NCBI GenBank assembly: GCA_041640075.1
Contig: JBEQAY010000020.1
Location: forward strand, 1-20,585
Origin: Candidatus Nanohaloarchaea archaeon
Lineage (GTDB): Archaea > Nanohalarchaeota > Nanosalinia > Nanosalinales > Nanosalinaceae
Reading direction: 5' to 3'
DNA: 20,585 nucleotides
The notes below the pieces were generated by a model. That model searched no databases and was not told where the DNA came from. It saw nothing but the letters and a program-made list of their open reading frames with translations. Made by a program: the position numbers and the translations under genes. Within the stretch, counting starts at the first letter, position 1. Every line of letters begins with the position of its first letter. Of this stretch, positions 1-18,695 are shown one piece after another.

Positions 1-1602
1 TGGGAAGTCTCCTGCGAAGTGCTCGATCATAACTCCCATGAACCGTTCGATCGATCCAAGGATCGCACGGTGGATCATGACGGGGTAATGTTCTTCGTTG
101 TCCTCTCCCTGGTACTTCAATCCGTAGTTCCGTGGAATTACGAAGTCGAGCTGTACTGTCCCCAGCTGCCATTCACGGCCGATAGCATCTTCTACCTCTA
201 CTCCAATCTTCGGTCCGTAGAATGCTCCTTCCTCAGGCTTGACCTCGTAGTCGCCGACTACTTCGTCCATAGCGTTCTTGAGTGATTTCTCTGCTTCTTC
301 CCAGAGTTCGTCAGGTCCTTGAGCTTTTGGCGGCTTTGTCTCCATGATGAAGTTTACATCGAACCCGAACTCGTCATACATCTCGATAATCTTCTCAAGG
401 TGAGCCTTGACCTCTTCCTCGATCTGATCTTTACGCAGGTATGCGTGTCCGTCGTCCTGAGTCATGACTCGGACCCTGAGTAGGCCTGAGAGCTCTCCGC
501 TCTGTTCGTTCCTGTTTACTGTTCCGAATTCAGATAGCTTGATTGGAAGGTCTTTGTAGCTGCGTGTTCCGGAGTCGAAAATATGGCTGTGGTTGGCGCA
601 GTTCATAGGCTTTAAGCCGTATTCGATGTCGTCCTGTTCCCAGGCGAACATTTCACCATCTTCTTTGAATGCCTCGTAGTGACCTGTTTTCTTCCAGAGT
701 TCGGCTTTGTTCAGTTCAGGCGTCCAGACCTCTTCGTAGCCAAGCTCTGCGTTCTTCTCCCGGATGTACTCCTCGAGTTCACGCCGGATTATCATCCCGT
801 TTCTGTGGTAGTGAGGTGCTCCGGGTGCATGTTCCGGTACTGAGAAGAGATCCATCTGCTTTCCGATCTTCCGGTGGTCTCGTTTCTCGGCTTCTCTCCT
901 GCGTTCCATGAAGTCTTCAAGTTCTTCCTTGGAGGGGAATGCTGTTCCATATACTCTTGTGAGCATCTCGTTTTCCTCATCTCCTCTCCAGTAGGCGCCT
1001 GCGATCTCCAGTAGTTTGAAGCCATCGACTTCGCCTGTTGAGGAGACATGTGGTCCTTTACAGAGGTCTTGGAACTCTCCCTGTTTGTAGAAACTGACTG
1101 TGTCGCCTTCACCAGCTTCCTCGTCCAGGATCTCTCTCTTGTATTCGTTGTCTTCGAAGAATTCCTCTGCTTCCTCGCGTGAAAGCATCTCTCGTTCGAT
1201 TTCCAGGTCTTCTTCGATAATCTTGCCCATTTCTTCCTCTATTTCTTCGAAGTCTTCCTGTTCCAGTTCTACTCCTTCGATATCGTAGTAAAATCCTTCG
1301 TCAGTCCATGGGCCGATTGTCAGTTTTACTTCGTCACCGTAGATTCTTTTCAGTGCCTGTGCGAAGACATGTGCGGCGCTGTGTCGGAGGACCTCTATGT
1401 ATTCGTCTGAGTCCTCTGTTACTATCTCTATTTCATCTCCGTCGGAAACTTGGTCTTCCTTGGCTACCATTTCGCCGTTGATTTTTCCGGCTACTGTGTC
1501 GTCGCCCAGTCCTGTTCCTATTTCGTATGCTACATCTTCTACTGATGCGTTTTCATCTACTTCTAAGTTTGATCCGTCTGGAAGCTGTACCTCAATGCTC
1601 AT
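1..1602 (-). CDS. thrS: Threonyl-tRNA synthetase, bacterial-type (TGS + editing + class II core); C-terminus lies beyond the left edge
   Basis: Not in the ORF track because it has no stop inside the window. Manual translation from ATG at 1602 is open to base 1: MSIEVQLPDGSNLEV (TGS) ... LRHSAAHVFAQA ... DLCKGPHV ... AGAYWRGD ... RDHRKIG ... LKPMNC ... RNEQSGELSGLLRVR ... QDDGH ... GAFYGPKI ... WQLGTVQLDF ... MIHRAILGSIERF ... EHFAGDFP. Confidence 0.97.
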   Translation of the reverse strand, partial: MSIEVQLPDGSNLEVDENASVEDVAYEIGTGLGDDTVAGKINGEMVAKEDQVSDGDEIEIVTEDSDEYIEVLRHSAAHVFAQALKRIYGDEVKLTIGPWTDEGFYYDIEGVELEQEDFEEIEEEMGKIIEEDLEIEREMLSREEAEEFFEDNEYKREILDEEAGEGDTVSFYKQGEFQDLCKGPHVSSTGEVDGFKLLEIAGAYWRGDEENEMLTRVYGTAFPSKEELEDFMERRREAEKRDHRKIGKQMDLFSVPEHAPGAPHYHRNGMIIRRELEEYIREKNAELGYEEVWTPELNKAELWKKTGHYEAFKEDGEMFAWEQDDIEYGLKPMNCANHSHIFDSGTRSYKDLPIKLSEFGTVNRNEQSGELSGLLRVRVMTQDDGHAYLRKDQIEEEVKAHLEKIIEMYDEFGFDVNFIMETKPPKAQGPDELWEEAEKSLKNAMDEVVGDYEVKPEEGAFYGPKIGVEVEDAIGREWQLGTVQLDFVIPRNYGLKYQGEDNEEHYPVMIHRAILGSIERFMGVMIEHFAGDFP

Positions 1603-1743
1603 ACAGAATCACTTCGGGAGAAGTTGTTTAATTGGTTTTGATGACAGCTGTCGCTGTGAGAAGTTTCAAAGCAAAAGTGACCGGCGGGTAAAACGTCCAC
1701 CTTTCATTGGTAAGTAAAGTTGGAGCTCGTATTTTTAAATAAA
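1603..1743 (-). promoter_or_regulatory. thrS upstream region with two TATA-like boxes, an SD-like box and hairpins
   Basis: On the minus strand: TTTATTTAAA (1743-1734), AATTAAA (1633-1627, 25-31 nt before the ATG) and AAGTGAT 5 nt before the ATG. Hairpins at 1701-1687 and 1657-1644. Confidence 0.4.
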
Positions 1744-3514: not shown

Positions 3515-4036
3515 ATGATAAAAGTTCTTCGGCTCGGCCACAGACTGGGTAGAGATGACAGAATTTCCACGCATGTAGGGCTTACTGCCCGTCAGTGGGG
3601 TGCAGATGAGATAGTTTTCTCAGGAGAAGAAGATGAAAATATGCTGGAAAGCCAGAGAGACATAATAGATCGCTGGGGAGGAGATGTGGAAATAAGGTAT
3701 GAAGAAAGCTGGAAAGAAGAAATAAGAGAGTTCAATGGTTTGAAAATCCACCTCACGATGTATGGGGAAAAGATCAACAATAATATCGATGAACTTCAGG
3801 AAAAGTTCTCTGAAAAAGACTTGCTTGTTGTAGTGGGTGCAGAGAAGGTGCCTAGATGGGTTTACAAGAATGTTGACCAGAATATCTCGGTAGGAAACCA
3901 GCCACATAGTGAGATAGCAGCTCTGGCTGTATTTCTAGATAGGATCAGAGATGGACAGATCAAGGAAGATTTTGGAGGAGCAGAGATCGAGGTAGAGCCT
4001 AGTGAAGAGAGAAAAATAACTAAGGAACTGGATTAG
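3515..4036 (+). CDS. trm56: tRNA (cytidine(56)-2'-O)-methyltransferase (aTrm56, SPOUT)
   Basis: Diagnostic motifs VLRLGHR..RD.RISTHVGLTAR, HLTMYG, VGAEKVP and SVGNQPHSEIAALAVFLDR. Confidence 0.96.
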   Translation: MIKVLRLGHRLGRDDRISTHVGLTARQWGADEIVFSGEEDENMLESQRDIIDRWGGDVEIRYEESWKEEIREFNGLKIHLTMYGEKINNNIDELQEKFSEKDLLVVVGAEKVPRWVYKNVDQNISVGNQPHSEIAALAVFLDRIRDGQIKEDFGGAEIEVEPSEERKITKELD

Positions 4037-4416
4037 TCCAGTTTATCCATCTTCAAAAGAACGTCATTGGCATAGGAGCGTAGTTCTTCCGAGTATCCTA
4101 GCACAGTCATCTCTTCCAGATCTTCCTGATAATCCATGACTGTTTCACGTGTCTCGTCGTATTCAAGTAATTCATCCGCTACTGTAAGTCCAACTAGCTG
4201 TAAAGCAGCAGTATTATCCATGTAGCTTTCTGATACATGAGTCGCCTCATCTCCAGGGTCTAGAAGATAATTAAGCCACTTTTCAGGCTCGTAAAGATCG
4301 TCGAACATCCTGTTATCGGCGTCTGATTCGAATCCGACTAGAGTTGTATCATCTCTTTCTACTATTTTGAATTCAGGGCTCCAGGAAACGTCAAAAAGGT
4401 CGTCTGTCTCCGCCAT
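4033..4416 (-). CDS. Hypothetical acidic protein (127 aa)
   Basis: ATG start with TTATTAAA about 26-33 nt upstream. Asp/Glu-rich like the neighbouring genes; fills the gap between trm56 and rnz. No recognised motif. Confidence 0.7.
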   Translation of the reverse strand: MAETDDLFDVSWSPEFKIVERDDTTLVGFESDADNRMFDDLYEPEKWLNYLLDPGDEATHVSESYMDNTAALQLVGLTVADELLEYDETRETVMDYQEDLEEMTVLGYSEELRSYANDVLLKMDKLD

Positions 4417-5447: not shown

Positions 5448-5828
5448 ATGGGTATATGGCATGAAGAGATAGAGGACTGGGTTTTGACATATGACAAAAA
5501 GAGGGAAGGGAGGAAAGATGTTCTCTCCGCAACAAATCCTGATAGAGGGATTTATCTCTCGGCCGATGAACAGGAGGGTATACAGGACCCACTTGAAACA
5601 CTTTACCGCTCACTGGAACACCCGGAGAATTCAGAGTTACCGGAAAGAGAGGAACTCGACGAACTTGACTTGACAAAGGAAGGACTAGAAACTCTGGAGC
5701 AAAGTATCCGGGAAAGAACTTTCAACGAAGTCATGAGGGATGGAAAAGAAGTTGAAAAGTCGCGTTACGATGACGAAGAGATAGCGGACAAGAAACACGC
5801 TCGATACGACCATGAAATAGACTCTTGA
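5448..5828 (+). CDS. Hypothetical highly acidic protein (126 aa)
   Basis: GGGGAG just before the ATG, TTTATAA at 5409-5415, T-run after the stop, Glu-rich composition. Confidence 0.7.
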   Translation: MGIWHEEIEDWVLTYDKKREGRKDVLSATNPDRGIYLSADEQEGIQDPLETLYRSLEHPENSELPEREELDELDLTKEGLETLEQSIRERTFNEVMRDGKEVEKSRYDDEEIADKKHARYDHEIDS

Positions 5829-5855: not shown

Positions 5856-6791
5856 CTAGATTACGTAAATATACCTTGTCAGATTCTTGTGGATATAGAC
5901 GCTGAAATCGGCCTCATAATCTTCCAGCGAGGCCTCGTTGTACATGAAAACAACTTCACCTTCAAAATCCTCTATAAGTTCTAGAAAGTCTTCTACGGCT
6001 GAATCAGTTTTCTTTGATGCCTGACCGTAAGGAAGATCGGTGAGGATAGCCGAGAAATTCTTTTCAAACATTTTAATAGATTCAGATGCTTCTCCCTGCC
6101 TTATATCGTGGCTGATAATGCCGTACTCCTCAAGATTCTCTTTACATCCTTTTACCATCTCTTCTTTCACATCAACTCCGCAGGCTCCGACGCCACAGAG
6201 CCCAGCCTCAATCAGGATGCCACCTGTTCCACAGAAAGGATCAAGAAGGAAATCTCCGGGTTTTATACCAGAAAGATTTGTTAGAACTCTTGCCAGGACA
6301 GGATCAAGTGATACGGGGGAGGAGAACGGTCTTTTCTGATTTTTCCGGTTTTCAAAGAGCCCTCTGTTAATATCTTCAGTTATCTCGCCTAAGATTATTT
6401 TTTCATTCAGGATATATACTTTGATCACAGAATGCGGGTTTTCCAGGTCTACAAAGTTTTCACTTGAGGAGAATTTTTCTCCCAGTGTTTTCTCTATATC
6501 TCCAGTATCGAGATCTCTCTCTGAGAGATTTTCTGTCCGGACCGCGAAACTGTTCTCCGGTGTGTAGTCTGGTTTAAAGTCTTTGAAGTTTTCTCTCGTT
6601 AGTTCCTTTATCTTCCTGCTTACTTCGTGTGTCAGTGCAAGGCGTTTCAGCTGACTGGGTTCAGCCTTGGTTTCTGCCAGTCTCTTTTCTCTATCAGGCC
6701 TCTCATCTATACTCTGACTCTTCAGAAATCCTTCAAGTTCTGCTTCAGCGAGTTCAAGGTTTTCTCCTGCAAGGAGGTAGATGTAGCTTAT
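5856..6791 (-). CDS. trm11: tRNA (guanine(10)-N2)-methyltransferase Trm11/TrmG10 (THUMP + Rossmann MTase), 311 aa with a proposed ATA start
   Basis: The frame stays open for 121 codons upstream of the tracked GTG (6428) and encodes the family N-terminus: (I)SYIYLLAGENLELAEAEL ... RLALTHEV ... SFAVR ... VDLENP. The C-terminal half has RPFSSPVSLDP..AR..NL, LDPFCGTGG.LIEAG and TDLPYG. In-frame TGA at 6800-6798. Confidence 0.9.
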   Translation of the reverse strand: MSYIYLLAGENLELAEAELEGFLKSQSIDERPDREKRLAETKAEPSQLKRLALTHEVSRKIKELTRENFKDFKPDYTPENSFAVRTENLSERDLDTGDIEKTLGEKFSSSENFVDLENPHSVIKVYILNEKIILGEITEDINRGLFENRKNQKRPFSSPVSLDPVLARVLTNLSGIKPGDFLLDPFCGTGGILIEAGLCGVGACGVDVKEEMVKGCKENLEEYGIISHDIRQGEASESIKMFEKNFSAILTDLPYGQASKKTDSAVEDFLELIEDFEGEVVFMYNEASLEDYEADFSVYIHKNLTRYIYVI

Positions 6792-7807
6792 TTTATATCA
6801 CCCTCATCTACTTTTCTGGACCCTTTCAGGCTGAGCAGTGCGAGGTATCCGATAAGTATGCCTGGCCAGTAGGTTGTCAACCTGAACAGTAGGGCGCTGG
6901 CCAGAGCTGTGTCAAGACCTACAGGGTAGTAGAGCATGATCAGTCCTGAGAAAGCTGTTTCGAATGTACCTGAGCCTCCGGGTGTGGGTGAGAAAGTTGC
7001 GATAGCGGATAAGATCAATGTAAAGTACGTAGGTATAATTAAGGGATCTATCCCTTGACCCATAAGGATGAAATACAGCGAGAGGAACTGCATCACTAAA
7101 GCTAGGTGAGGTACTATAAGTGTCTTGAGCAGGTGTTTTGGATCGTCTCCAACTTCCTGGAATGCAGTCTTAATTTCACGGATCTGGTTCTTAGCTGATT
7201 CAATGTATGTGTCGCTTATACCAAATGTGCTCTGAATGCCTTCAATCAAGTTGAAAATAAAGTTTTCCAGTATCTCATCTTCAAACCAGACGAGATAGAC
7301 GATTACGGATGCAATTATGGCTGTGGGTATCGTAATATAGATTATCTTAAGAGTGAAGCTGGTTAAGGTATTAAAGACAGCTAGATAAGTCAGCCCTGCT
7401 ACCAGGTAAGTGAACAAAGGTACAGCGTTCAGTAGATCTGCTGAAACCACGGATGAAAGGGCTTTTTCATAGTTTGAATCTGTGTTTTTGGAGACGATAT
7501 ACGCCATGAATGGTTCGCCGCCGAATTGACCCAGGGGTGTGATCGAGTTCATGAAGTTTCCTCCCAGGAAAAGTCTCAGAGATTCTCGGTAATTAGCTTC
7601 TATACCTACTTTCTGAAACATTTTGTACCATACATAGGCCACGAAAAGGAAGAAGGATAACCCAGAAATCATAGCTAAAGCCATGAATTGTCTGTTTACG
7701 GAACTTAAAGCCGTTATTAACTGACCTAGATCTGCAAAATATATCAGAACAGCAAATATAACTGTTGTTACGCTGTACCAGACTATTTTACTTTTCTTCC
7801 ATTGCAT
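6788..7807 (-). CDS. UPF0104 / LPG-synthase TM-domain (flippase-like) membrane protein, paralogue 2
   Basis: 339 aa. NSITPLGQFGGEPFMAY, PTPGGSGTFE, FRLTTYW. Overlaps rnp4 upstream and trm11 downstream. Confidence 0.88.
   Translation of the reverse strand: MQWKKSKIVWYSVTTVIFAVLIYFADLGQLITALSSVNRQFMALAMISGLSFFLFVAYVWYKMFQKVGIEANYRESLRLFLGGNFMNSITPLGQFGGEPFMAYIVSKNTDSNYEKALSSVVSADLLNAVPLFTYLVAGLTYLAVFNTLTSFTLKIIYITIPTAIIASVIVYLVWFEDEILENFIFNLIEGIQSTFGISDTYIESAKNQIREIKTAFQEVGDDPKHLLKTLIVPHLALVMQFLSLYFILMGQGIDPLIIPTYFTLILSAIATFSPTPGGSGTFETAFSGLIMLYYPVGLDTALASALLFRLTTYWPGILIGYLALLSLKGSRKVDEGDIK
6797..6805 (-). promoter_or_regulatory. Shine-Dalgarno GAGGGTGAT for trm11
   Basis: Matches the archaeal GGAGGTGAT consensus, followed by a 5-nt spacer (ATAAA) and ATA at 6791. 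Confidence 0.65.
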
Positions 7808-8078
7808 AGCGCGCTACCTGGCCACATTCTTCACATGTATAGATAATTTCCTGATTTTCTGGGTTTAAACGCACTCTACAGTTATCTCCAGGGATAAGAT
7901 AATTTTTACATTCGCTGCAAAATTTTTTCTGTAGCTCCCTAGGGATTTTCTCCTGAGTCCGTTTATTTATTTTTCTGGCAAGTTCAACGTATCTGTCTGC
8001 TAGCTCTTGATTGCCTGCCGAAGCCTGTCTCTCCGCAAGCTCGAAAAGTCTGTTAATCCTCTCTTCGGCAATTGACAT
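7788..8078 (-). CDS. rnp4: Ribonuclease P protein component 4 (Rpp21)
   Basis: IA.ERI..LFELA, LADRYV.LARKI, KKFCSEC..YLIPG.N.RVRL, TCEECG...RY zinc ribbon. Confidence 0.95.
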   Translation of the reverse strand: MSIAEERINRLFELAERQASAGNQELADRYVELARKINKRTQEKIPRELQKKFCSECKNYLIPGDNCRVRLNPENQEIIYTCEECGQVARYAMEEK

Positions 8079-8128
8079 GAACTATCGTAAATTTGCCGAC
8101 TGGCTTTTTTATCTGTCGTGCACTATTA

Positions 8129-8177
8129 CTGATGTAACTCTGTTAAGACTAACATCAGAAAATTTTCACAGTGAAAA
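8129..8177. promoter_or_regulatory. Two inverted repeats in the rnp4/GT2 divergent intergenic region (candidate operators)
   Basis: CTGATGT-N16-ACATCAG (8129-8158) and TTTTCAC-A-GTGAAAA (8163-8177). Confidence 0.4.
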
Positions 8178-8192
8178 GAAGTCCATCTACAG

Positions 8193-9209
8193 GTGATTAA
8201 AGTTAATAATCAAGTAAACTTTGTCGTTCCGGTAGCTCCTTTCGAGCCTCAGGAGATCATAAGAAAATCTGTAGAGGCATTGAAACATACTGAGACTCCG
8301 AGGAATTATGAAAAGGAGATTTTCTACGTTATAGATACTGATCAAGATCCTGCAGAAGACGAAAGAGTGCAGTACCTGCGCCGGGAAACTCCAGAAGAGG
8401 TAAAAACTATAGCAAGAACCTCGAACGAAGGTAGGAGAGCGGGAGCGATAAACAGGGCGCTTGACGAAATGGATGTCCCTGACTACGTTGCAATTTTCGA
8501 TATAGACTCCCGGCCTGGAGAAAAATTTATCGGAGCATGTATAGACCAGCTTGAAAGTGAAGAAAGAATTTTCATGTCGACATGTCCGCGCCGTGTGATA
8601 AATAAGGATCAGAACTTCGTTACTAAACTGGTTGAAGCAGAATACGATTTTCTGACAGATATGCAGCTTTTGCTGGAGAAAACAGAAGGTTTCAACCACT
8701 TCAACGGACTTATATCTGTCATTGAAGGTGGTTATCTAGAGAAGGAGAGATTGAATGAATCAAGGATGTGTGAGGACACTGATTTTACTCAAAGAGCATA
8801 CTTGAACGGTAGAAGACCTGCTATAAATAGTGAATCTTATCTGGGAGAGCAGGCCGTCACTACTTTTCAGGATCTGTACAGTCAGAAGGTTCGCTGGATG
8901 AACGGAGCTCTTGAAGGAATAATGAATTTTTCAGGCTCTTTCCTGAGAAGTGATCTTCCTTTCAAGATAAGATTAAGTTGGCTGTCGGCGATGGTTTTAC
9001 CTTTCTTTTCAGCAGTTTTAAGTCCTTTAGTGGTTTTGCACGTTGCTAAAAATATTTTAACCACCGGCAAGGTTTTTGATTCTCTTGAGAAAGGTTTTGC
9101 GCTTTTCTGCTTTGCTTGGTTTATCTCTTACTGCGGTCTTGTCAATCTGTTCAAGCTTCTTTTTGATAGAGATGTAGAATGGACGGACTCCGACCGTGAA
9201 ATCATTTAG
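8193..9209 (+). CDS. GT2 glycosyltransferase with D-DxD-ED-QxxRW signature and C-terminal TM helices (start may be GTG 8193 or GTT 8202)
   Basis: VVPV..EP, GRRAGAIN, FDIDS, FNG, CEDTDF, QKVRWMNG, followed by 2-3 hydrophobic helices. Confidence 0.9.
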   Translation: MIKVNNQVNFVVPVAPFEPQEIIRKSVEALKHTETPRNYEKEIFYVIDTDQDPAEDERVQYLRRETPEEVKTIARTSNEGRRAGAINRALDEMDVPDYVAIFDIDSRPGEKFIGACIDQLESEERIFMSTCPRRVINKDQNFVTKLVEAEYDFLTDMQLLLEKTEGFNHFNGLISVIEGGYLEKERLNESRMCEDTDFTQRAYLNGRRPAINSESYLGEQAVTTFQDLYSQKVRWMNGALEGIMNFSGSFLRSDLPFKIRLSWLSAMVLPFFSAVLSPLVVLHVAKNILTTGKVFDSLEKGFALFCFAWFISYCGLVNLFKLLFDRDVEWTDSDREII

Positions 9210-9210
9210 T

Positions 9211-11544
9211 TCAGTCCAGTTCCAACTTCAGACTTCCCTGATACATCCCGCCGTCAGTCCAGTTGGCTTTCCTGGAGAGGTCAAACCCTTCCGCAGAATC
9301 TTCTGAGTTATCAAGATATAGTTTGAAATCTTCGCCAGCAATACTCTGGTTGTCAGGAGTTTTAGAGGTCTCAAGAATGACTTTTTCGCAGATAAGGTCG
9401 TGTTTGTCTGTAGTTATTTCCAGATCAATCTTCACTTCGTTTTCGAAGGCCGATACTTTACCTGAAATCCTGTATATATCGGTTTCTACACTAAATGAGA
9501 CCTTATCATTCTCTACCTCTGTCGTAATATTTTTTTCTATTTCTGAAAAACAGGTTTCTGGCGCTGATAGTTCCTTAGGCTTGATACCTGTCCAGAGATA
9601 GCTTAAATCTTTAGGAGCCAAGAAAAACTTCGATTTCCTTAGTTTTGAGAAAGTTTTGCTCCGCAGACTGCTTTTAAGATTGTAAGGGCCTTTAAAACAT
9701 AGTTCATGGTCTATTTTTTCTCCTTTTATCTTGGAGAAACCTATCCTATCGATGTCGAAAACAGTATCTTCATCTACTGTTATCTCCGTGCCAGTTACAT
9801 CTATTTCTGGTTTCTTGCCTGAATCAAAGTCTTCAGCAGTTTCTTGATCTATGGTTATCTCCGAGTGTTTTTCTTCGAATTTTTTCAGTGTGTACAGGAG
9901 TTCTGCGGTCGCAAAAGTCTGTTCTGTCTCAAGATTATTCAAGCCGTCGTTAAAATCATAGAAAATTCCTTCAGACATTCCATGTGTACTGTTCCGGAAC
10001 TTTAGAGCTTTCTCCAAATGTTCAGAAGCTAAGTCTTCCCATATCTGATTTTCAAGATACTTGGAGACTTTCAAGAAGGTTTTTGCGGCTTTAACTGTTT
10101 CAAAAGGCGAGATTCTCTGTGTTATGGTTTCTGATATAGGGTGGCAGGTCCCACGCAAATCGAACTTTTCTCCGTTGTACCAGCTTGTCCACGTGCTGAG
10201 ATGGAGTGAGTACGTTTCTGCCTGTTCTAGGTGTTTTTCTTCTCCTAGTACCTCATAGGCTTCCAGAAATGCCTCTATAACAGCGAAGGCCGAAAATCCT
10301 TCAACTTCTTCGCTACCTATATCTCTTAACCCGTTCCTGCAGATTGGTTTTTCTGTTTCAAGAGCTTGCAAACCTTTTCTGGCGGCTTCAAGGTATTTTT
10401 CTTCATCAAAATAGTTTCCGGCCTTCAGAAGAGCTTTTACAGATTCTCCGGTCGCGCCCTCAGATTTTAATCCGTAGTAATCGTCTTCTTTGAGAGGTAG
10501 CTCCATCTCCTGTTTCAATGCTGCCGGCCAGTGACCGGATTCCTTCTGAGTTGAAAGAATGTACTCTAGGTTTTCTCTAACCAGTTTTTCTAGCTCATTA
10601 TCTTTGTTTCTCTTCAGATATTCTAGGAGGTTGTAGGAGATGGTTGACTGGCCTCCCGGGTACCCGTAGTATCCGGTACCTAGGTAAAACTCTCCTTCAA
10701 GGTTTTCTCCATTGAAGCTTGCAGTGTTGTACCAGGCCATACCTTCTCCATGTTTGAGATCTCTTTTCTGCAGATCCGGATTTTTGAACAGCTCTATCAA
10801 CCGGTTACTCCAATAGCTAAAATCTTTGCTTGGACTGGTTTCGGAAAGCTGATCAAAATAGTTAAGCCTGACTGCTTCATTCGAGGTTAGAGAATAGCTG
10901 TATTCGTTTAAAGCGAATCCTGGTCTTTCACGCCATGGAAGCTGTAGGAAAGTTCCTTGGTCATCGTCCCAGCTCCGGTAAAGCCATTTATGCGAGTCTC
11001 TAAACTCTTCAGAAAGATTCCTCTCACGAATTTCTGTACTGGTGTTATCTGTTTCCTCCTGGATTTTTCCCTGAACTGCACTCTTCCAGTTATCGAACTC
11101 CTTGAACTCGAGCTGATAATCCTCAATATCAGGATTGTCGTAAGTTTTCTTGTCGCCTTTTCCAAGCCATTCAGCTTTTTTCTCCTTCTTCTCAATTTTC
11201 TCCGGCAAGACAATCTCAATCCGTTTCTCTTCAGCGTCATATCCTATAAAGTGATAGGCCGGCCCGTTCTCAGTCTGTACGACCGGTTCAATCTCCGCTG
11301 CAAGACAGTAATCCTCGAACTGAAGGACGATCAATTGAATGTTGATCTCGGACAGGGGAATAAATTTTTTACCTTCTTGAGTGAACGGTAGAATCTTTTT
11401 CGTGTAGTATGTCGTATACGGATATTCTATTACGGATTCTGACTCTATAGAGATATCATCCTCTCCATACCTCAACCCACCGATAAACCAGTAATCCGGT
11501 TCTTCATCCAGTTTTTCAGAGTGCAGAACCTCTTTGTTTTCCAT
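9211..11544 (-). CDS. 777-aa uncharacterised protein with a probable (alpha/alpha)6 toroid core (six-hairpin glycosidase/epimerase-like)
   Basis: Helical hairpin repeats YILSTQKESGHW, ALLKAGNYFDEEKYLEAA and AFLEAYEVLGEEKHLEQA, flanked by beta-rich N- and C-terminal regions. No signal peptide. Confidence 0.75.
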   Translation of the reverse strand: MENKEVLHSEKLDEEPDYWFIGGLRYGEDDISIESESVIEYPYTTYYTKKILPFTQEGKKFIPLSEINIQLIVLQFEDYCLAAEIEPVVQTENGPAYHFIGYDAEEKRIEIVLPEKIEKKEKKAEWLGKGDKKTYDNPDIEDYQLEFKEFDNWKSAVQGKIQEETDNTSTEIRERNLSEEFRDSHKWLYRSWDDDQGTFLQLPWRERPGFALNEYSYSLTSNEAVRLNYFDQLSETSPSKDFSYWSNRLIELFKNPDLQKRDLKHGEGMAWYNTASFNGENLEGEFYLGTGYYGYPGGQSTISYNLLEYLKRNKDNELEKLVRENLEYILSTQKESGHWPAALKQEMELPLKEDDYYGLKSEGATGESVKALLKAGNYFDEEKYLEAARKGLQALETEKPICRNGLRDIGSEEVEGFSAFAVIEAFLEAYEVLGEEKHLEQAETYSLHLSTWTSWYNGEKFDLRGTCHPISETITQRISPFETVKAAKTFLKVSKYLENQIWEDLASEHLEKALKFRNSTHGMSEGIFYDFNDGLNNLETEQTFATAELLYTLKKFEEKHSEITIDQETAEDFDSGKKPEIDVTGTEITVDEDTVFDIDRIGFSKIKGEKIDHELCFKGPYNLKSSLRSKTFSKLRKSKFFLAPKDLSYLWTGIKPKELSAPETCFSEIEKNITTEVENDKVSFSVETDIYRISGKVSAFENEVKIDLEITTDKHDLICEKVILETSKTPDNQSIAGEDFKLYLDNSEDSAEGFDLSRKANWTDGGMYQGSLKLELD

Positions 11545-11578
11545 TTCTAACTTTAACTCCGTTCAAGCCGTTTTCTTT

Positions 11579-12583
11579 TCAGTCGTCAAGAAGACTGCGG
11601 TATGATTGTTTGAGTTTTTCCCCTATTTTATCCAGAGACCTTTCCTCCGCCATTTCTCTGGCGTTTTCACCTAGCTCTCTGCGTAGCTCTTCGTCGTCTC
11701 TCAGTGTCTTCAAGTGTTCGATAAGTCCTTCAGGACTATCTGCCTTTAGACAGTTTTCCTCATGGATCAGCCATCCCTCGTATGCCGGAATATCACGTAC
11801 TACAAGCGGCAGTCCACAGTAAGCAGCTTCAAGAATGGCAATACCTTCCTCCTCACTTCTGGAAGGGAAGAAGAAAATATCTCCAGACGCAAGACCTTCA
11901 CGCTTGTCGTCTACATATCCTGGAAACTTGATGTTATCCGGAGAGTTCTTTATCTTCTTTTTGGTCTCTCTTGGGGTAAGTACCTTACTTTTAGGACCGA
12001 ACCAAGTGAACTTCATGTCTTTAAGCTCGTCCGCAGCCTGCAGATAATCAGAAACACCCTTCCGCTCGAAAACTGCTGCCAGATTTACAGCTGTGACCTC
12101 TTCGTTGAAGTAAGTGTTGTCTTCGTTCTGAAACTGCTCGTAGCCATCCAGGTTTTCGCCGTCCACGCCGTTGCTCAGTACTTTTATCTCTGTATCAATA
12201 TTTTTAGATTCTACTACGTTTTTAGTGTACTCTGATACGGCTATAAGTAGATCAGCTCTTCTGTAGGCAAACTTTGTATACTTGTCAACTAAAGGTGCTG
12301 CAAGGTTGGAGCCTCTGAAACTATCTCTGAAGTTCTCTGCGGTCCAGTGAACATGGATAACCACTTTCTTGCCATTCCGCTTTGCCTTTAGAAGATGGTA
12401 TATTGAGGGTAGTCCCAGAAGATTCAGGTGCAGGATATCGTAGTCATCGGAGGGATCGGTGGTGTAGTCTATATCATTTTTCTCAAATGCCTTTCTCTGA
12501 TGGCTTATAGAAGTCTCAGCCCCCCCTCCAATTATAGGGTGGATGTCTGAAAGATCTAGATCCGTATAATGGCAAACCTTCAT
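11579..12583 (-). CDS. GT4 glycosyltransferase, LafB/CpoA/BgsA-like (glycolipid glycosyltransferase type)
   Basis: HQRKA..., DDYDILHLN, KKVVIHVHWTAENFRDSFRGSN..APLV, SNGVD, RKGV, FFFPSRSEEEGIAILEA. Own TATA (TTTAAATAAA, 12616-12607). Confidence 0.88.
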   Translation of the reverse strand: MKVCHYTDLDLSDIHPIIGGGAETSISHQRKAFEKNDIDYTTDPSDDYDILHLNLLGLPSIYHLLKAKRNGKKVVIHVHWTAENFRDSFRGSNLAAPLVDKYTKFAYRRADLLIAVSEYTKNVVESKNIDTEIKVLSNGVDGENLDGYEQFQNEDNTYFNEEVTAVNLAAVFERKGVSDYLQAADELKDMKFTWFGPKSKVLTPRETKKKIKNSPDNIKFPGYVDDKREGLASGDIFFFPSRSEEEGIAILEAAYCGLPLVVRDIPAYEGWLIHEENCLKADSPEGLIEHLKTLRDDEELRRELGENAREMAEERSLDKIGEKLKQSYRSLLDD

Positions 12584-12651
12584 TATAGCTACAGTTAACT
12601 ATACAATTTATTTAAATCCAGCAGAGAACCTGTAGAAAACTATTGCAAACT

Positions 12652-13998
12652 TCACATATAACCTAGATCCTCAAGCCTTTTCTTCACTTCCTCATCCTGT
12701 ATATCATCGTCTTCCTCGTCTTCGGCGCCTGAATCGCTGTCGATGGAATTAACAGAGTCTCTCCAGCCTTTATCAATCTCTATATCTTCTCCAGCCTCCA
12801 GATCTGTCATCTCGTAACTTTCATCTCCGTCGCGGGTTATAGACTTCACTATCTTCTTTGTTTTATCCTTGACAAACCTGAATTTTCTGTCGTATTTCTC
12901 TCTTCTGTCTTCTGGGATAACACCAACAAAAAATTCTGGGAACTCGTAGCTACCCTTCACTTTTTCCGTACTGTTTTCCGGCATCTCACTTATACCAGCT
13001 AATCCAGGCACAAGATCGTAAAGCTGCCTCAGCTCGAACAATGTTTCTTTCTCTTCTACTTCTGTCTCTGGACCTTTAATCAGCAAGGGGGTCTCGATAA
13101 CTCTGTCCATGACCGTGAACTGGTGTCCATAAACTTCATCTTTTCCTACAGCCTGTCCATGATCAGAGAGGACGATTAAAACCGTGTTCTCATCAAGATT
13201 ATTTTCGATTATACTTTCATTGATTTCTCCTACAAGATCATCTGTATACTCTACGGCTGCATCATAGGCTTTTTCAAGATCCTCTTGGTTGTAGTCTTCG
13301 TTGAAGAACTCTCTTTCAGTGCTTGGGACTTTTGATATGTCTTCAACTCCATGTCTGTCCAGATATTCCTGTGGAGGGTCTCCAGGATCGTAAGGTTCAT
13401 GAGCGCTCATCAGGTTGACGAAAAGGAAGAAGTCCTCATCTCCAACATTTTTAAGGAATTTTTTGGTCTCATCGACTGTTTCACGGGACTTACATAGATC
13501 GACTGTAGTAAATTTTTCGAATACGATATTTGCGATGTACGCTACTTTTTTCCTCGTCCTTTCGCCCAAGAAGTTGAAGATGTCTGTGGATTTCTGGAAA
13601 AGCGTCTGTACAGGACCTCTTCCAGCAAGCCCAAGGAAGTTTTCCACCTCGTCAAAACCATCTACAGTCCCTATAGAAGGTGAAATCCAGGTGTTTGGGG
13701 TGATGACTTTTGTTCTGTAGTCCTCTTCCTGGAAACGCTCTGCAAGGGTCGTCACATCTGTATCCAGCCGCGTCCTATCATGGTTGGCTCCGTGCTCCCA
13801 AGGGTACTGTCCTGTGAACACCGAAGCTGTCGAAGGTAGAGTCCACGGAGCCTGTGCGTTCGCCTCTGTGAAAACCTTTGACTCTTCAGCTAGTTCATCG
13901 AAATTAGGTGTAAAATCCACATCGTCGTTGTAAACAGAAAGCCTGTCTTTTCTTAGAGAATCCAGTACAAGAACAACGACGTTTTTTTCCTCTCTCAT
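12652..13998 (-). CDS. Sulfatase-like hydrolase/transferase (alkaline phosphatase superfamily) with a Thr nucleophile
   Basis: VVVLVLDSLR.D, APWTLPSTASVFTG.YP..HG, AHEPY, SDHG, GH, and the C-terminal 'V..RLEDLGY' tail. Confidence 0.88.
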   Translation of the reverse strand: MREEKNVVVLVLDSLRKDRLSVYNDDVDFTPNFDELAEESKVFTEANAQAPWTLPSTASVFTGQYPWEHGANHDRTRLDTDVTTLAERFQEEDYRTKVITPNTWISPSIGTVDGFDEVENFLGLAGRGPVQTLFQKSTDIFNFLGERTRKKVAYIANIVFEKFTTVDLCKSRETVDETKKFLKNVGDEDFFLFVNLMSAHEPYDPGDPPQEYLDRHGVEDISKVPSTEREFFNEDYNQEDLEKAYDAAVEYTDDLVGEINESIIENNLDENTVLIVLSDHGQAVGKDEVYGHQFTVMDRVIETPLLIKGPETEVEEKETLFELRQLYDLVPGLAGISEMPENSTEKVKGSYEFPEFFVGVIPEDRREKYDRKFRFVKDKTKKIVKSITRDGDESYEMTDLEAGEDIEIDKGWRDSVNSIDSDSGAEDEEDDDIQDEEVKKRLEDLGYM

Positions 13999-14081
13999 AT
14001 TTTTTCTACGTAAATTTCAGATACAACTGAATGCTTAAAAGCCTACAGAAATTTTCTCCCAAGTTCCCTAGGGTTATGTAA

Positions 14082-14129
14082 TTTAAACCTGTCTAACAAG
14101 ATTCTTCGTAAAGAACTTCTTAAGGTGAT
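14082..14129 (+). promoter_or_regulatory. TATA box (TTTAAA 14082-14087) and SD (AAGGTGAT 14122-14129) of the DUF2070 gene
   Basis: TATA spacing predicts a transcription start near 14110. The SD is followed by a 5-nt spacer (ACTAC) and an in-frame ATC at 14135. Confidence 0.6.
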
Positions 14130-14134
14130 ACTAC

Positions 14135-15784
14135 ATCCCGACCGATAATCTGGAGGTTTTCAAAAAGGTAATCTTTCATCTACCTCCATTAAAGAAGACT
14201 CTGGCGCTTTTCGCAGGGCTTGGAATTATTTACTCGGCCATACTTTTTGGACTAGTGGATATATTGCTTATAGACACTGTAAATATTCTATCGGTTCCGC
14301 TTTTCGCCCTGATGCTTTTCCTGGTGCCTGGAATTATCGCTTCAGAACTTTACCACTTTTTTCTTCCAGGTTATCCACGTAAATGGGGCTACTTCCTTTC
14401 CTTGGTCAACCAGTTGATAATCTTCATGTTTGCCGCTTTACTGACATTTTCAGAGAGCTTTGCAACCGCCTGGCGGGTAATCTGGCTTGGATTAGTCACT
14501 CTCTACATCAATAACTTCTTTATCCTGCTACTTTCTGTCGGACCTGACCACCTGAGAAATATCTCACTTCTCTCACTGGTTCAACCGGTTATGATACTTT
14601 CAGGTTTCCATCTCGTTCTTGGCCAGTTCCTCCAGATCTCGCTTTTCGCCTACCTGACAAACTTTCTGGTTATCATCGGAGCCGGCCTGGTACTCCTCCT
14701 GGCAGTTTATATAACAGAGTTCCTGGTCGGTTCAAACGTCTCCAACATCTCGATACTGGACCTGGCAGCTGCCCTACTCCAGAACAAGCAGGAGAAACTT
14801 GATCTTGGAAGACCTGTAAATCCGAATGTACAGACACTTGAGATCGAGAACAAATCTGGGTTGAAAAAATTAGCCGTTCCATGGCTCCATCCAGGACCTA
14901 TAGAAGGTTTCGGAGGGGGACAGATCACATCACAGATCATCGAAAGCCTGAACGAAGGAAGAGACGAAGGATTTTTCCTTCACGTACCTTCAAACCACGA
15001 GATGGATCCATCTGACCCAAGAGACAGTGAAAAAGTAGTAAATGCATTAAAAGAAACTGAAAGATCTGAAAAGGCATCAAAGCTCTACAGGAAAGAGTTC
15101 GAAGATTCTATCATGTATGGCAGGGTTTCCGGCGACAAGAAGATAGTATACCTTGAACACAAAAATTACGACGACTACGATGCCAGTATCTATCAGGAAG
15201 TTATAGACAAAGATAATACCACGATCATCGACCTGCACAATCAGTCCAAAGGATCGAGGCTTGGCGAGTTGCGTTACGGAACTAGGGACTCACGGAGAAC
15301 TAGAAAGAATATGAGAGAGTTTCTTAAAGATCTGGAAGAACTGGAACAGCAGGATTACTTCGCAGGTTTCTCCAAGGGAGAAGGCTCAAAGCCTAATGCA
15401 GCATTAGTAGAGAAAGTAGGAGATCAGAAAACACTTCTGTTTGGAATAGAGGGCAATGACTCGTCTGAGGAACTACGTGAGCTCAGAGAAGAATTTGAAG
15501 ATTCATTCGACTCGGTTTTACTTTTCACGACCGATACTCACGCCAGTATCCATGACCTGGCTAGTGATAAACAGATCAGTAAGGAAGAACTCCGTGCTAC
15601 TGTGGAAGAAGCTCTTCAGGATGTTTCACCTGCCGAGATAGGTCTTGGGAACCAGGAATCGGAGGAGATGAAGTTCCTGAAGGATGACTACTACGGTCTT
15701 ATCTACACTATCAACATCCTTGTACGGTTGATCCCGATCTCTCTGATCTTCATGTATATCGCGCTCGCTATCTGGCTTTTCTGA
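14135..15784 (+). CDS. DUF2070 family membrane protein (predicted lipid hydrolase, neutral-ceramidase-like fold), 549 aa with a proposed ATC start
   Basis: N-terminal multi-TM region, soluble domain with LHPGP..G.GGG, H.PS.H..DP, DLHN and TTDTH, and a C-terminal TM. The frame is open for 40 codons upstream of the tracked GTG: (I)PTDNLEVFKKVIFHLPPLKKTLALFAGLGIIYSAILFGL. Confidence 0.8.
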   Translation: MPTDNLEVFKKVIFHLPPLKKTLALFAGLGIIYSAILFGLVDILLIDTVNILSVPLFALMLFLVPGIIASELYHFFLPGYPRKWGYFLSLVNQLIIFMFAALLTFSESFATAWRVIWLGLVTLYINNFFILLLSVGPDHLRNISLLSLVQPVMILSGFHLVLGQFLQISLFAYLTNFLVIIGAGLVLLLAVYITEFLVGSNVSNISILDLAAALLQNKQEKLDLGRPVNPNVQTLEIENKSGLKKLAVPWLHPGPIEGFGGGQITSQIIESLNEGRDEGFFLHVPSNHEMDPSDPRDSEKVVNALKETERSEKASKLYRKEFEDSIMYGRVSGDKKIVYLEHKNYDDYDASIYQEVIDKDNTTIIDLHNQSKGSRLGELRYGTRDSRRTRKNMREFLKDLEELEQQDYFAGFSKGEGSKPNAALVEKVGDQKTLLFGIEGNDSSEELRELREEFEDSFDSVLLFTTDTHASIHDLASDKQISKEELRATVEEALQDVSPAEIGLGNQESEEMKFLKDDYYGLIYTINILVRLIPISLIFMYIALAIWLF

Positions 15785-15838
15785 GAGCAGAAGTCTCTGG
15801 CGGTAGAGGATTTAACATTTCACCTCCAAATCTTGTTC

Positions 15839-16174
15839 ATGGTTTCAGAGGACTTGACCGCCGAAGATGTGAGGGAACAGCTCAAGAACGTTATGGATCC
15901 TGAACTAGATGTAAATATAGTAGACTTAGGCCTAATAAGAGAGATAACGGTAGAAGAAGATGAAGTCCACGTACTGATGACTTTGACCACTCCGGGATGT
16001 CCTCTGCACGGTGTGTTCGACGAACTGGTCAAAAGAGAGGCTGGAAACCTTGAAGGTCTCGAAGAACACGAAGTAGAAGTAGAGCTGACTTTTGAACCTA
16101 GATGGAGTCCTGAAGAGATGTCTGATGAAGCAAGGAACGAACTGGGACATCTTCCCGGGATGGCGGGTTTCTAG
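15839..16174 (+). CDS. Metal-sulfur cluster assembly factor (DUF59/SufT/PaaD-like)
   Basis: LKNVMDPELDVNIVDLGLI, MTLTTPGCP, LTFEPRWSPE.MS. ATG 15839 preferred (ATTTAAC about 25 nt upstream). Confidence 0.92.
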   Translation: MVSEDLTAEDVREQLKNVMDPELDVNIVDLGLIREITVEEDEVHVLMTLTTPGCPLHGVFDELVKREAGNLEGLEEHEVEVELTFEPRWSPEEMSDEARNELGHLPGMAGF

Positions 16175-16175
16175 G

Positions 16176-16925
16176 TTACCTACTTCTCTTGAAAAGTTTT
16201 CTCTCAATTATAACCGGAAGGAAAAGAGTTTCACGTAGAACCCAGCCTGTTTTTCGTGCCATAGCTTTCGTGTAGTCCCATGTACTGAGGTGCAGAGGTT
16301 TTCTGCGTCCGTAGACATGATTTGACCCGTTTTTGATGGCTTTCAGTATCTCATCTGAGGAGAGGTCGTCTTCTTCACTGAAAAATGTGTTGATCTCTGT
16401 GTATGCCTTTCCGACCATTGTAATTGAGTGTGCATCGCTGGCAGCGGTTTCAGGATAATCATTTTTCCTGGCAAATCTCTTGGCTTTCTTGTTTTTCCAG
16501 CCTGTGAAAAGCCAGGAATTATAGACTTCTACAGCATCTATATCATCTATCTTGGATTTCCTGACGCCATGACGTGTTGTCTGGAAGGGATGAGGCACCA
16601 CAGCTACGCCTCCCATATCTCTGACTTCCTCTACAGTATCCATGAAGTCCTGCCCTTTCTCAGGGAGTTCTTCTACACCAAGTGCAAGAAGATGACCGTT
16701 ATCAGTTGATACTTCAGCTCCTGGTATAACCGTGATGTCGTAGTCTTCTGCTTCTTCCCGGGCTTCCAGAGATTTTTCGATAGAGTTGTGGTCTGTGATC
16801 GCTACTGCATCAAGATCTATGTCATCGGCATGTTCAAGTATAAGCTCAACAGGTTCGTTACAGTCGTAAGAGCCTTCGGAGTGGACGTGAAGGTCTACCT
16901 TGATGCTGGAATCTTCATCGCTCAT
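16176..16925 (-). CDS. PHP-domain metal-dependent phosphoesterase
   Basis: DLHVHS, AITDHN, GAEVST..GHLLA, PHPF, VEVYN, ASDAH. Confidence 0.9.
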   Translation of the reverse strand: MSDEDSSIKVDLHVHSEGSYDCNEPVELILEHADDIDLDAVAITDHNSIEKSLEAREEAEDYDITVIPGAEVSTDNGHLLALGVEELPEKGQDFMDTVEEVRDMGGVAVVPHPFQTTRHGVRKSKIDDIDAVEVYNSWLFTGWKNKKAKRFARKNDYPETAASDAHSITMVGKAYTEINTFFSEEDDLSSDEILKAIKNGSNHVYGRRKPLHLSTWDYTKAMARKTGWVLRETLFLPVIIERKLFKRSR

Positions 16926-17007
16926 TAATTTCGTTTAACATCTGTAAACCTATAAACACGCGGTAACCTCCAGCAGATTTTTCACTGTACACAACCATAA
17001 AATACAT

Positions 17008-17481
17008 GTGACCTCCAGAAATCTGGACTCAGAGTACTTCGAAGACAACCCTCTTTACCACTGGACAGAGAAAGCAGGTGTACTCAACACAGTAACAAAT
17101 ATTCTCTTGACAAGTATCGCCAAGATCCTTCCAATGAAAACAAAGAACTCATTACTCAGAAAAATCGGTTTAGATATTGGTGAAGATGTGGCTATAGCCT
17201 TTGGCGTCCAGGTTGACATCTTCTACCCGGAAAGAATCAGTATAGGAAGTGAATCAGTCATAGGATACGGAACAACTATTTTAACTCATGAAACGACTAC
17301 AGAAAGGTTTTCCATAGGAGAGGTTCGAATCGGAGAGGAAGTCCTTATCGGTGCCAATACAACTATCTTGCCGGGTGTGGAGATAGGAGATGGAGCCGTG
17401 GTCTCAGCGAACTCACTTGTCAACAGAGATGTTAAACCTGGTGAAGAAGTCGAAGGCGTACCCATAAAGGAGCGTGAATAA
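17008..17481 (+). CDS. yvoF: Left-handed beta-helix O-acetyltransferase, YvoF-like (ether-lipid acetyltransferase type)
   Basis: N.LYHW, KN.LLR.IG, DIFYPERISIG..SVIGYGTTILTHE, IGEVRIGEEVLIGANTTILPGVEIGDGAVVSANSLVNRDV. This closely follows the B. subtilis YvoF sequence as I recall it. Confidence 0.8.
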   Translation: MTSRNLDSEYFEDNPLYHWTEKAGVLNTVTNILLTSIAKILPMKTKNSLLRKIGLDIGEDVAIAFGVQVDIFYPERISIGSESVIGYGTTILTHETTTERFSIGEVRIGEEVLIGANTTILPGVEIGDGAVVSANSLVNRDVKPGEEVEGVPIKERE

Positions 17482-17482
17482 C

Positions 17483-17869
17483 TTGACTGCGCTAGAAGAT
17501 ATACTTGAAGCGGTGAAGAGTAGGAGAGGAATCAGTTTTTCACAGCTTAAAGATAAGACTGGTAGAGGTAATGGAACGGTACAGTATCACGTAAATACTC
17601 ATCCAGAGATCGGAAAAAAGAACGATGCAATTATACACAGGCAGAGATGCAGCAACTGCCCACTGGAAAATTTCTGCAGGGATAAATGCGTAAAGATGCT
17701 TCTTGAGCAGCCTCTGAGGAGAAAGATTCTTTTGAAAAAACTTGAAGGCATGCAGAACAACGCCATAGCTTCGGAACTAGATATACATAAGTCCACGGTC
17801 AGTTACCATCTTTCGAAACTTCCTGAGGCTTCTGAAGAGTTCCATGAAGCACTGGAAGAGGAGCTCTAG
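17483..17869 (+). CDS. Double winged-HTH transcription regulator with a central Cys cluster
   Basis: HTH1 GISFSQL......GTVQYH, HTH2 IASELDIHKSTVSYHLSKL, linker CSNCPLENFCRDKC. TTG 17483 follows the SD-like GGAGCGTGA after 5 nt; the tracked GTG lies inside that box. Confidence 0.75.
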   Translation: MTALEDILEAVKSRRGISFSQLKDKTGRGNGTVQYHVNTHPEIGKKNDAIIHRQRCSNCPLENFCRDKCVKMLLEQPLRRKILLKKLEGMQNNAIASELDIHKSTVSYHLSKLPEASEEFHEALEEEL

Positions 17870-17930: not shown

Positions 17931-18695
17931 ATGACAAGATTTTCTGGGAGGACTGCGATTGTTACAGGGTCTGCATCCGGAATCGGCAGAGGTATAGCTC
18001 AAAAACTCGGAGCTGAAGGCGCAAAAGTGGTAGTGGCTGATCTGTCTCCTGAACCTAACACAGGCGGTACACCAACCCACCAGAAAATACAGGAAGAAGG
18101 TGGGGACGCGATATTTCTAGAAACTGACGTCACTGATGAAGAATCTATACAGGACACAGTTTACAAAGCAGCAGAAAAATACGGAAAAATAGATATACTT
18201 GTAAACAACGCTGGAGTACACCACTCTGCATCTGTAACAGATGAGACAGAGGCAGGCTGGAGTCAGGTTATAGGAGTAAACCTTAACGGAGCATTTATGT
18301 GCAGTAAACACGTTATCCAGCACATGCTGGACGAAGATGTGCAGGGAGATATCGTCAACATCGGCAGTATCGCAGGTCTTGTCGGCTACGGTGAAAGCGC
18401 GGCCTACTGCGCATCCAAGGGTGCTATAGTTGAACTTACACGTGAGATGGCGATTGACTACGGTGACAAAGGTATCAACGTCAATGCAGTTGATCCAGGT
18501 GTGATCAAGACGGCTATGACCAAAGATATGCGTGAAGACGATCAGACAAGGCAGTTCATGGAGCAGAACACTGCTCTTCCCCGTCTCGGAGAACCTGAGG
18601 ATATCGCAAACGCTGTAGCTTTTCTCGCATCCGATGAAAGCGACTTCATCACAGGGGAGAACCTGGTTGTTGATGGAGGCTGGACGGCTAAATGA
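17931..18695 (+). CDS. SDR family NAD-dependent oxidoreductase
   Basis: TGSASGIG, VVAD (NAD preference), NNAG, YCASK, PGVI.T, ITG..LVVDGG. ATG 17931 preferred (TTTTATT about 25 nt upstream). Confidence 0.93.
   Translation: MTRFSGRTAIVTGSASGIGRGIAQKLGAEGAKVVVADLSPEPNTGGTPTHQKIQEEGGDAIFLETDVTDEESIQDTVYKAAEKYGKIDILVNNAGVHHSASVTDETEAGWSQVIGVNLNGAFMCSKHVIQHMLDEDVQGDIVNIGSIAGLVGYGESAAYCASKGAIVELTREMAIDYGDKGINVNAVDPGVIKTAMTKDMREDDQTRQFMEQNTALPRLGEPEDIANAVAFLASDESDFITGENLVVDGGWTAK

Follow-up and report, generated by a model that had tools for sequence, protein, structure and literature searches.

Codons behind strong Shine-Dalgarno boxes in the window

The DNA analysed here (the window; 20,585 nucleotides (nt), contig C20) belongs to a Candidatus Nanohaloarchaea genome (G000; 980 kb, 89% complete) that occurs in hypersaline metagenomes, and it carries three genes, trm11, GT2 and DUF2070, in which a perfect Shine-Dalgarno (SD) box is followed by a codon other than ATG. 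The hexamer GGTGAT occurs six times in the window; only three copies lie at gene 5' ends, and these lead to ATA, GTT and ATC, respectively. All three, and a fourth, imperfect box before a helix-turn-helix (HTH) gene, lie exactly where they were placed by the original prediction, which proposed that this lineage routinely starts SD-led genes on near-cognate codons and TATA-proximal genes on ATG. The complementarity of GGTGAT to the 16S rRNA 3' end, on which that proposal relied, is borne out by the genome's own 16S tail, which ends GGAUCACCUCC in G000 and in two relatives (G001 and G003), so that the SD matching it is GGAGGTGAT.

The trm11-like gene (5856..6791, reverse strand; THUMP plus methyltransferase, TIGR01177 family, 311 amino acids (aa)) has its putative ATA start at 6789..6791, five nt after the box at 6797..6802 (predicted pairing -9.9 kcal/mol), and its first canonical codon lies 121 codons downstream. 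The box sits within the 3' end of the upstream gene for a lysylphosphatidylglycerol (LPG)-synthase-type membrane protein or flippase (6788..7807, reverse strand; PF03706), and the ATA overlaps the TAA stop of that gene (6788-6790) as ATAA, a -4 overlap analogous to ATGA; the two genes are probably translationally coupled. GT2 and DUF2070 both follow divergent genes and lack such a stop/start overlap with an intragenic SD. The GT2 glycosyltransferase gene (8202..9209, forward strand; Pfam match) has GTT at 8202, four nt after a box at 8192..8197 that itself contains an in-frame GTG (8193), the start in the public call. The DUF2070 membrane protein gene (14135..15784, forward strand; PF09843, 549 aa) has ATC five nt after its box (14124..14129), the TGA of which is an in-frame stop three codons ahead of the start, with the first canonical codon 40 codons further on. 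A TATA-like TTTAAA (14082..14087, forward strand) stands 53 nt upstream of the ATC, and from its position and the genome-wide TATA peak described below the mRNA leader would be about 25 nt long. As the original prediction anticipated, gene callers shorten these genes: the public trm11 has 190 of 311 aa and the public DUF2070 protein 509 of 549.

Other SD-led genes of the window are ordinary in this respect. The HTH regulator gene (17483..17869, forward strand; Pfam HTH) has TTG five nt after the imperfect box GGAGCGTGA (17469..17477; -10.4 kcal/mol). TTG is a canonical archaeal start codon, and in G003 the orthologue carries ATG at this position of the alignment; TTG 17483 is an ordinary start. 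Two further SD-led genes of the window use ATG: thrS (1600..1612, reverse strand), read from the sequence as GTGAT-N5-ATG with the start at 1602, is a counter-example, and the dehydrogenase gene at 18692 has ATG behind GGAGG. The labels thrS, trm56, Yip1, GT4, PHP and SDR used here are taken over from the original prediction or assigned from the translations.

Orthologues and coding character of the disputed N-termini

Alignment of orthologues, which had been proposed as a check, shows that the codon does vary. Among 27 DUF2070 loci (30, with 3 truncated left out), 24 begin with ATG, one with GTG and one with TTG, and ATC is found in the window only, where the residues IPTDNL align to MPTDNL or MPADNL of the relatives. 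Among 29 trm11 loci (30, with 1 truncated left out), 22 have ATG and 4 GTG, while ATA stands in G000 and in a second species, G003, and ATC in G014. A GGTG box precedes all three near-cognate trm11 copies versus 5 of the 22 ATG copies, and only one of those 22 has a predicted pairing at least as strong as that of the weakest near-cognate copy (-9.9 kcal/mol). Because ATA and ATC sit where the relatives start and behind a strong SD, translation likely starts there. For GT2, the orthologue in G004 (55% identical) has the same box, an in-frame stop and then a GTG aligned to the GTT; the intervening stop favours 8202 over 8193, a preference that relies on one close orthologue. GT2 thus probably starts at GTT 8202, although with two mismatches to AUG this site is less certain than the ATA and ATC sites.

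The stretch between the near-cognate and the first canonical codon evolves as coding sequence, judging from the distribution of mismatches over codon positions 1, 2 and 3: 34/27/72 over 118 codons of trm11, 17/8/23 over 39 codons of DUF2070, and 209/115/370 when ten genes are pooled. Position, SD, spacing and coding stretch all agree with SD-dependent near-cognate initiation, and the trm11 ATA and DUF2070 ATC are likely to be starts of this kind.

Frequency across the genome

The genome-wide tests cover four genomes of one family: G000, 1.04 Mb of its relative G001, 0.94 Mb of G003 and 0.42 Mb of G014 (420 of 957 kb). A frame-checked orthologue was present for 796 G000 genes, a frame and codon-usage filter was applied, and the many G003 candidates resembling frameshift fragments were excluded; numerous apparent frameshifts are a feature of the G003 sequence. 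A raw tally of the codon after every GGTGAT, coding or not, gave no signal, as internal boxes swamp it. When 451 G000 genes with an aligned ATG in a relative were classified, the strong-SD class comprised 75 ATG, 7 GTG and 2 TTG starts, 3 genes in which a canonical codon lay close by, and 4 non-canonical codons; these four were all near-cognate (ATA, ATC, ATT and CTG). With the four genomes pooled and counted by hand, genes that lack a canonical codon where a relative has ATG carry a single-mismatch codon in 6 of 6 cases with a strong SD versus 5 of 39 without. In a second test, on 792 G000 genes, GGTG boxes at 5' ends were compared with those inside genes. A canonical codon follows 117 of the 135 boxes at 5' ends; of the other 18, 9 are followed in frame by ATA, ATC or ATT (ATH), versus 48 of 1083 internal boxes (Fisher p=4.8e-8). 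The predicted excess of such codons behind SD boxes is therefore real in G000, and the same enrichment appears in G001 (6/21 vs 39/817, p=5e-4), G003 (5/23 vs 41/906, p=0.004) and G014 (2/3 vs 18/308, p=0.011), which as kin are not independent. The distance from GGTG to the codon peaks at 6-8 nt.

After inspection, 10 of the 18 non-canonical 5' boxes were accepted and DUF167 was added, giving a set of trm11 (ATA), DUF2070 (ATC), GT2 (GTT), MnhE (ATA), DUF167 (ATT), Orc1/Cdc6 (CTG), Nudix (ATT), the CPA2 antiporter (ATC), metG (ATT), a prenyltransferase (ATC) and an unnamed 241-aa gene (ATT). These 11 of 792 genes (1.4%, about one in 70) and 10 of 135 GGTG-led 5' ends (about 7%) do not amount to the routine use that had been proposed; every accepted case has a GGTG box, most SD-led genes nonetheless begin with ATG, and the window, with 3 of the 11 cases, is unusually rich. 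G001 adds RpoB' with ATT (C1:735248, reverse strand), an E2 acyltransferase with ATC and MnhF with ATT, and G003 adds a metallo-beta-lactamase (MBL) hydrolase with CTG. Orc1/Cdc6 (C25:1229, forward strand) has CTG in one of the four genomes compared, G000, and ATG, TTG and ATG in the relatives. All three SD-led ATA starts (trm11 in G000 and G003, and MnhE) lie in -4 overlaps, ATAA or ATAG, and the confinement of ATA to such overlaps may be explained by the upstream stop codon, which fixes the third base.

Genes with a TATA box behave differently. Genome-wide, ATG genes without an SD box show a TATA peak at -32..-28, and when genes with a motif at -33..-27 are taken as TATA-proximal, the 70 such starts in G000 comprise 66 ATG, 4 GTG and no near-cognate codon; pooled, near-cognate codons account for 1 of 217 TATA-proximal versus 7 of 180 GGTG-led starts. 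In the window, trm56, GT4, DUF59, PHP and SDR have a TATA-like motif 28-33 nt upstream, whereas for Yip1 the motif is found only at -17. Leaderless mRNAs have been described as relying on codon-anticodon pairing to bind (PMC7531240), and this dependence fits the near-exclusive ATG of the TATA-proximal genes.

A model of SD-dependent near-cognate initiation

Taken as a whole, these observations make it likely that intact genes of this lineage begin translation at a near-cognate codon held in place by a strong SD. The model proposes that a GGTG[AG] box anchors the message to the 30S subunit and thereby brings the codon lying 6-8 nt further downstream into the P site; there initiator Met-tRNA may sample it and accept a mismatch at reduced efficiency, as work on Pyrococcus abyssi leads us to infer (PMC6237735), a study that describes the archaeal initiation complex as pre-positioned by SD pairing. 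Both the use of Met-tRNAi and an output weaker than that of ATG are suppositions of the model. In Staphylococcus aureus, AUU or AUA with an extended SD is reported to give about 10% of AUG output (PMC13009471). In trm11, DUF2070, Orc1/Cdc6, RpoB' and MnhE/F the strong SD would have enabled a tolerated, sporadic switch of the start codon, and the near-cognate starts imply the N-terminal peptides (M)SYIYLLAGENLE and (M)PTDNLEVF.

Several points weigh against this interpretation. In Escherichia coli, AUA, AUC, AUU and CUG are reported to yield only 1-2% of AUG output and other codons 0.1-1% (bioRxiv 10.1101/063800); by analogy, 1-2% would be low for methionyl-tRNA synthetase (MetRS) or RpoB', and the output of the two-mismatch codons GTT, GTC and TTC would be lower still. 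The SD has been reported not to work in 5' leaders of Haloferax volcanii (PMC7531240; PMC6728339), and DUF2070, GT2 and metG look like leading genes. The GTG at 8193, inside the GT2 box, is a valid alternative start. Inspection led to the rejection of 8 of the 18 G000 boxes without a canonical codon as non-starts, including two doubtful ATT/GTT cases in which the orthologues retain Met a few codons later. The RpoB' ATT is limited to one of 44 genomes (G001), and a family-wide ATH start of this gene was rejected, as 40 further genomes have 34 ATG, 4 GTG and 2 TTG. Finally, a survey of 139 starts of neighbouring genes from 41 other genomes, of low power and with ATG genes as queries, contained 31 GGTG-led starts, none of them near-cognate.

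Initiation machinery

Loss of an initiation factor or an abnormal initiator tRNA had been put forward as a possible basis for relaxed start selection. Neither was found: aIF1 is present in 53 of 61 genomes and in all 27 near-complete ones, aIF1A, the alpha, beta and gamma subunits of aIF2 and aIF5B are all present, and the initiator tRNA is normal, with A1-U72 and three G-C pairs in the anticodon stem. Start-codon proofreading lost through the absence of aIF1 or another factor is therefore rejected as an explanation. It is possible, if doubtful, that a weakened aIF1 proofreader relaxes selection in this lineage, which could add to SD-dependent initiation. The basic loop 1 of aIF1 (L031:1477-1779) reads SRSYNK versus RARYGK in a Pyrococcus-type structure; among 22 family members, 21 have Ser, Thr or Ala in place of the Arg of RYGK and 6 (genera g1 and g18, this genus included) lack the zinc knuckle, whereas 7 of 8 genomes from other families retain the Arg. 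In P. abyssi, the aIF1 R31A variant binds the 30S subunit sevenfold more weakly (84 vs 12 nM; PMC6237735). However, with mRNA bound the same variant still binds below 3 nM (PMC6237735), the aIF1 discussed here has an Arg one position earlier, and sister families with a normal loop use TTC, GTC or TTT in metG. As the effect of R31A is small in the presence of mRNA and normal-loop families share the odd metG starts, what is left of the proposed relaxation is a weak lead through the aIF1 loop. One genome, G018, carries two aIF1 copies in tandem.

A conserved weak start in metG

The sporadic class described above (RpoB' 1/44, DUF2070 1/27, near-cognate trm11 3/29) stands beside genes in which a weak start is shared by many relatives. 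The CPA2 antiporter has one in 10 of 23 cases (5 ATC, 2 ATT and 3 CTG, the CTG cases being ambiguous as the GTG of the box is in frame). The metG gene, encoding MetRS, was read in 46 genomes of the order (L241:1306 on contig C27 of G000, and L242-L290), and its box was located by script in 43; the start in these is ATC in 17, ATT in 11, GTC in 5, TTC in 5, TTT in 1 and ATG in 2, with two misfits (GAA in one, AAA with ATT one codon on in the other). Thus [AGT]T[CT] follows AGGTG in 39 of 43 boxed genomes, and A never occupies the third position; ATA is common within genes (internal codon counts: ATA 4573, ATC 5615, ATT 2434). In 26 genomes, GTC, TTC and TTT cases included, the stretch from the upstream stop to the first conserved strand contains no ATG, GTG or TTG, and these forced GTC and TTC cases make the GTT of the window more plausible; in several other copies the GTG of the box is itself in frame. 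Many family members have a TTTAAA-like motif about 43 nt upstream of metG. Outside the order, three of four genomes have ATG or TTG; in the fourth (G057) either ACG or an ATG further upstream could be the start.

This conservation suggests that the weak start of metG, and in part that of CPA2, is probably selected, as in bacterial infC. Whether selection likewise maintains the weak starts of the window for regulation is another matter, and we regard this as unlikely. The ATA of trm11 is common to G000 and G003, with ATC recurring in G014, and weak starts are kept in metG and the CPA2 antiporter; however, conservation as expected of infC-type regulation is seen in metG (39/43) and not in DUF2070 or trm11, and the affected genes have no common function. 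The suggestion that near-cognate starts tune expression therefore fits metG and does not fit the window genes, which switch starts sporadically.

A more speculative scenario, which we consider quite improbable, is that MetRS synthesis starts with tRNA-Ile(GAU), independently of Met-tRNAi, and that the sporadic ATC, ATT and GTT starts are by-products. It is raised because the metG set [AGT]T[CT] suits a GAU anticodon with tolerance at the first position in the P site. If true, this route would act as a bootstrap, sustaining the supply of MetRS whenever charged initiator tRNA runs low. The elongator features of tRNA-Ile(GAU) speak against it, as do the occurrence of ATA and CTG starts and the fact that the genomes compared are kin and not independent. 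A second initiator tRNA with a GAU anticodon was not seen in the tRNA sets of G000, G001 and G003. In the same three sets the tRNA-Ile with UAU anticodon contains an intron. A search of five genomes, four of which are single-contig assemblies of 95-99% completeness, found no TiaS domain (PF08489) in any.

Gene decay and sequence error

Very improbable, in our estimate, is that the genes are decaying or are translated solely from a downstream canonical codon. The public calls do take downstream codons, and in G003 the trm11-GT2-DUF2070 locus is present twice, the second copy being partly broken (C7:563500-570933). However, in G000 each frame is unbroken and occurs once, changes in the N-terminal stretches are biased to the third codon position, a truncated trm11 would lack the greater part of the THUMP domain (residues 72-134), and the same pattern recurs in metG, Orc1/Cdc6 and RpoB'. 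An error of sequencing or assembly at the third base of an ATG hardly deserves consideration, for although the comparison with metagenome run X1 was of contigs, not raw reads, and X1 may be the source sample, its contigs (depth ~385) agree at the ATA, GTT and ATC codons even though 12 other listed positions differ from the window, ATA is independently present in G003 trm11, and errors would not track SD boxes. The proposed base check at 6791 and 14135 thus returned no ATG in the X1 assembly. Contigs of four further runs were compared in the same manner: the GT2 box and GTT are kept in strain contigs of X3 and X10 (22 and 12 differences; depth 3-6), and the contigs of X5 and X6 do not extend to the GT2 start.

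Neighbouring genes

Elsewhere in the window, a 777-aa protein (9211-11544, reverse strand) has a weak LanC-like match (E 1.9e-6) and lies among GT2, GT4 and sulfatase genes, and two short acidic open reading frames (4033-4416, reverse strand, and 5448-5828, forward strand) have no Pfam match. Two similar membrane genes lie within 6 kb of each other, 1748-2776 and 6788-7807 (-), the second being the PF03706 gene upstream of trm11. On one contig of G000, two tRNA-His(GTG) genes are about 230 nt apart.

Relation to known systems and significance

SD-led near-cognate starts are already known from bacteria and from single archaeal genes. Most alike are infC, cvfC1, ccpN and citZ of S. aureus, in which AUU or AUA stands behind a strong, well-spaced SD and output is lower (PMC13009471). 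That system differs in being bacterial, with IF3, and in comprising four sites that were demonstrated experimentally, whereas the present one concerns an archaeon and some 11 genes, many of them sporadic and some with two-mismatch codons, and is known from sequence. In Deinococcus, core genes likewise use such codons (dnaA ATC, rpsL CTG, and infC; PMC2830850), as Orc1/Cdc6 does here with CTG; however, those starts were identified by N-terminal proteomics and are conserved across Deinococcus, as opposed to one of four genomes for Orc1/Cdc6. Among archaea, an ATC start of L12ae in Staphylothermus marinus was deduced from alignment and the spacing of the ribosome-binding site (RBS; PMC2678158), and Asgard atubA has ATT with an RBS (PMC13394414). 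Both are single genes, with neither a genome-wide rate nor a conserved case at family level. In H. volcanii, near-cognate codons make up about 30% of putative alternative starts and were excluded candidates (PMC7261190). Belinky et al. also found non-AUG starts paired with a stronger SD, in a study covering GUG and UUG (PMC5622118); among 61,358 ancestral AUG codons they report one change to AUU and two to CUG, figures that rest on annotation and closer genomes and are not directly comparable with the 4 of 451 found here. Termination-reinitiation at ATGA overlaps (PMC6728339) resembles the -4 overlaps of trm11 and MnhE, with an SD inside the upstream gene, but the overlaps considered there are ATGA and TGATG, and those here are ATAA and ATAG. 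According to one review, archaea start translation on AUG, GUG and UUG. A search of main texts, mostly from open-access journals, listed no study of near-cognate initiation in nanohaloarchaea and none of an AUY start in an archaeal metG.

The protein databases would be corrected accordingly, as the greater part of the THUMP domain is missing from the public trm11. In metG, the conserved start ending in a pyrimidine is a candidate for translational control of MetRS. If real, these starts would provide natural test cases for the model of local scanning and aIF1 proofreading, and would mean that a further archaeal lineage tolerates ATH and CTG, and even two-mismatch codons, when they are positioned by an SD, core genes included.

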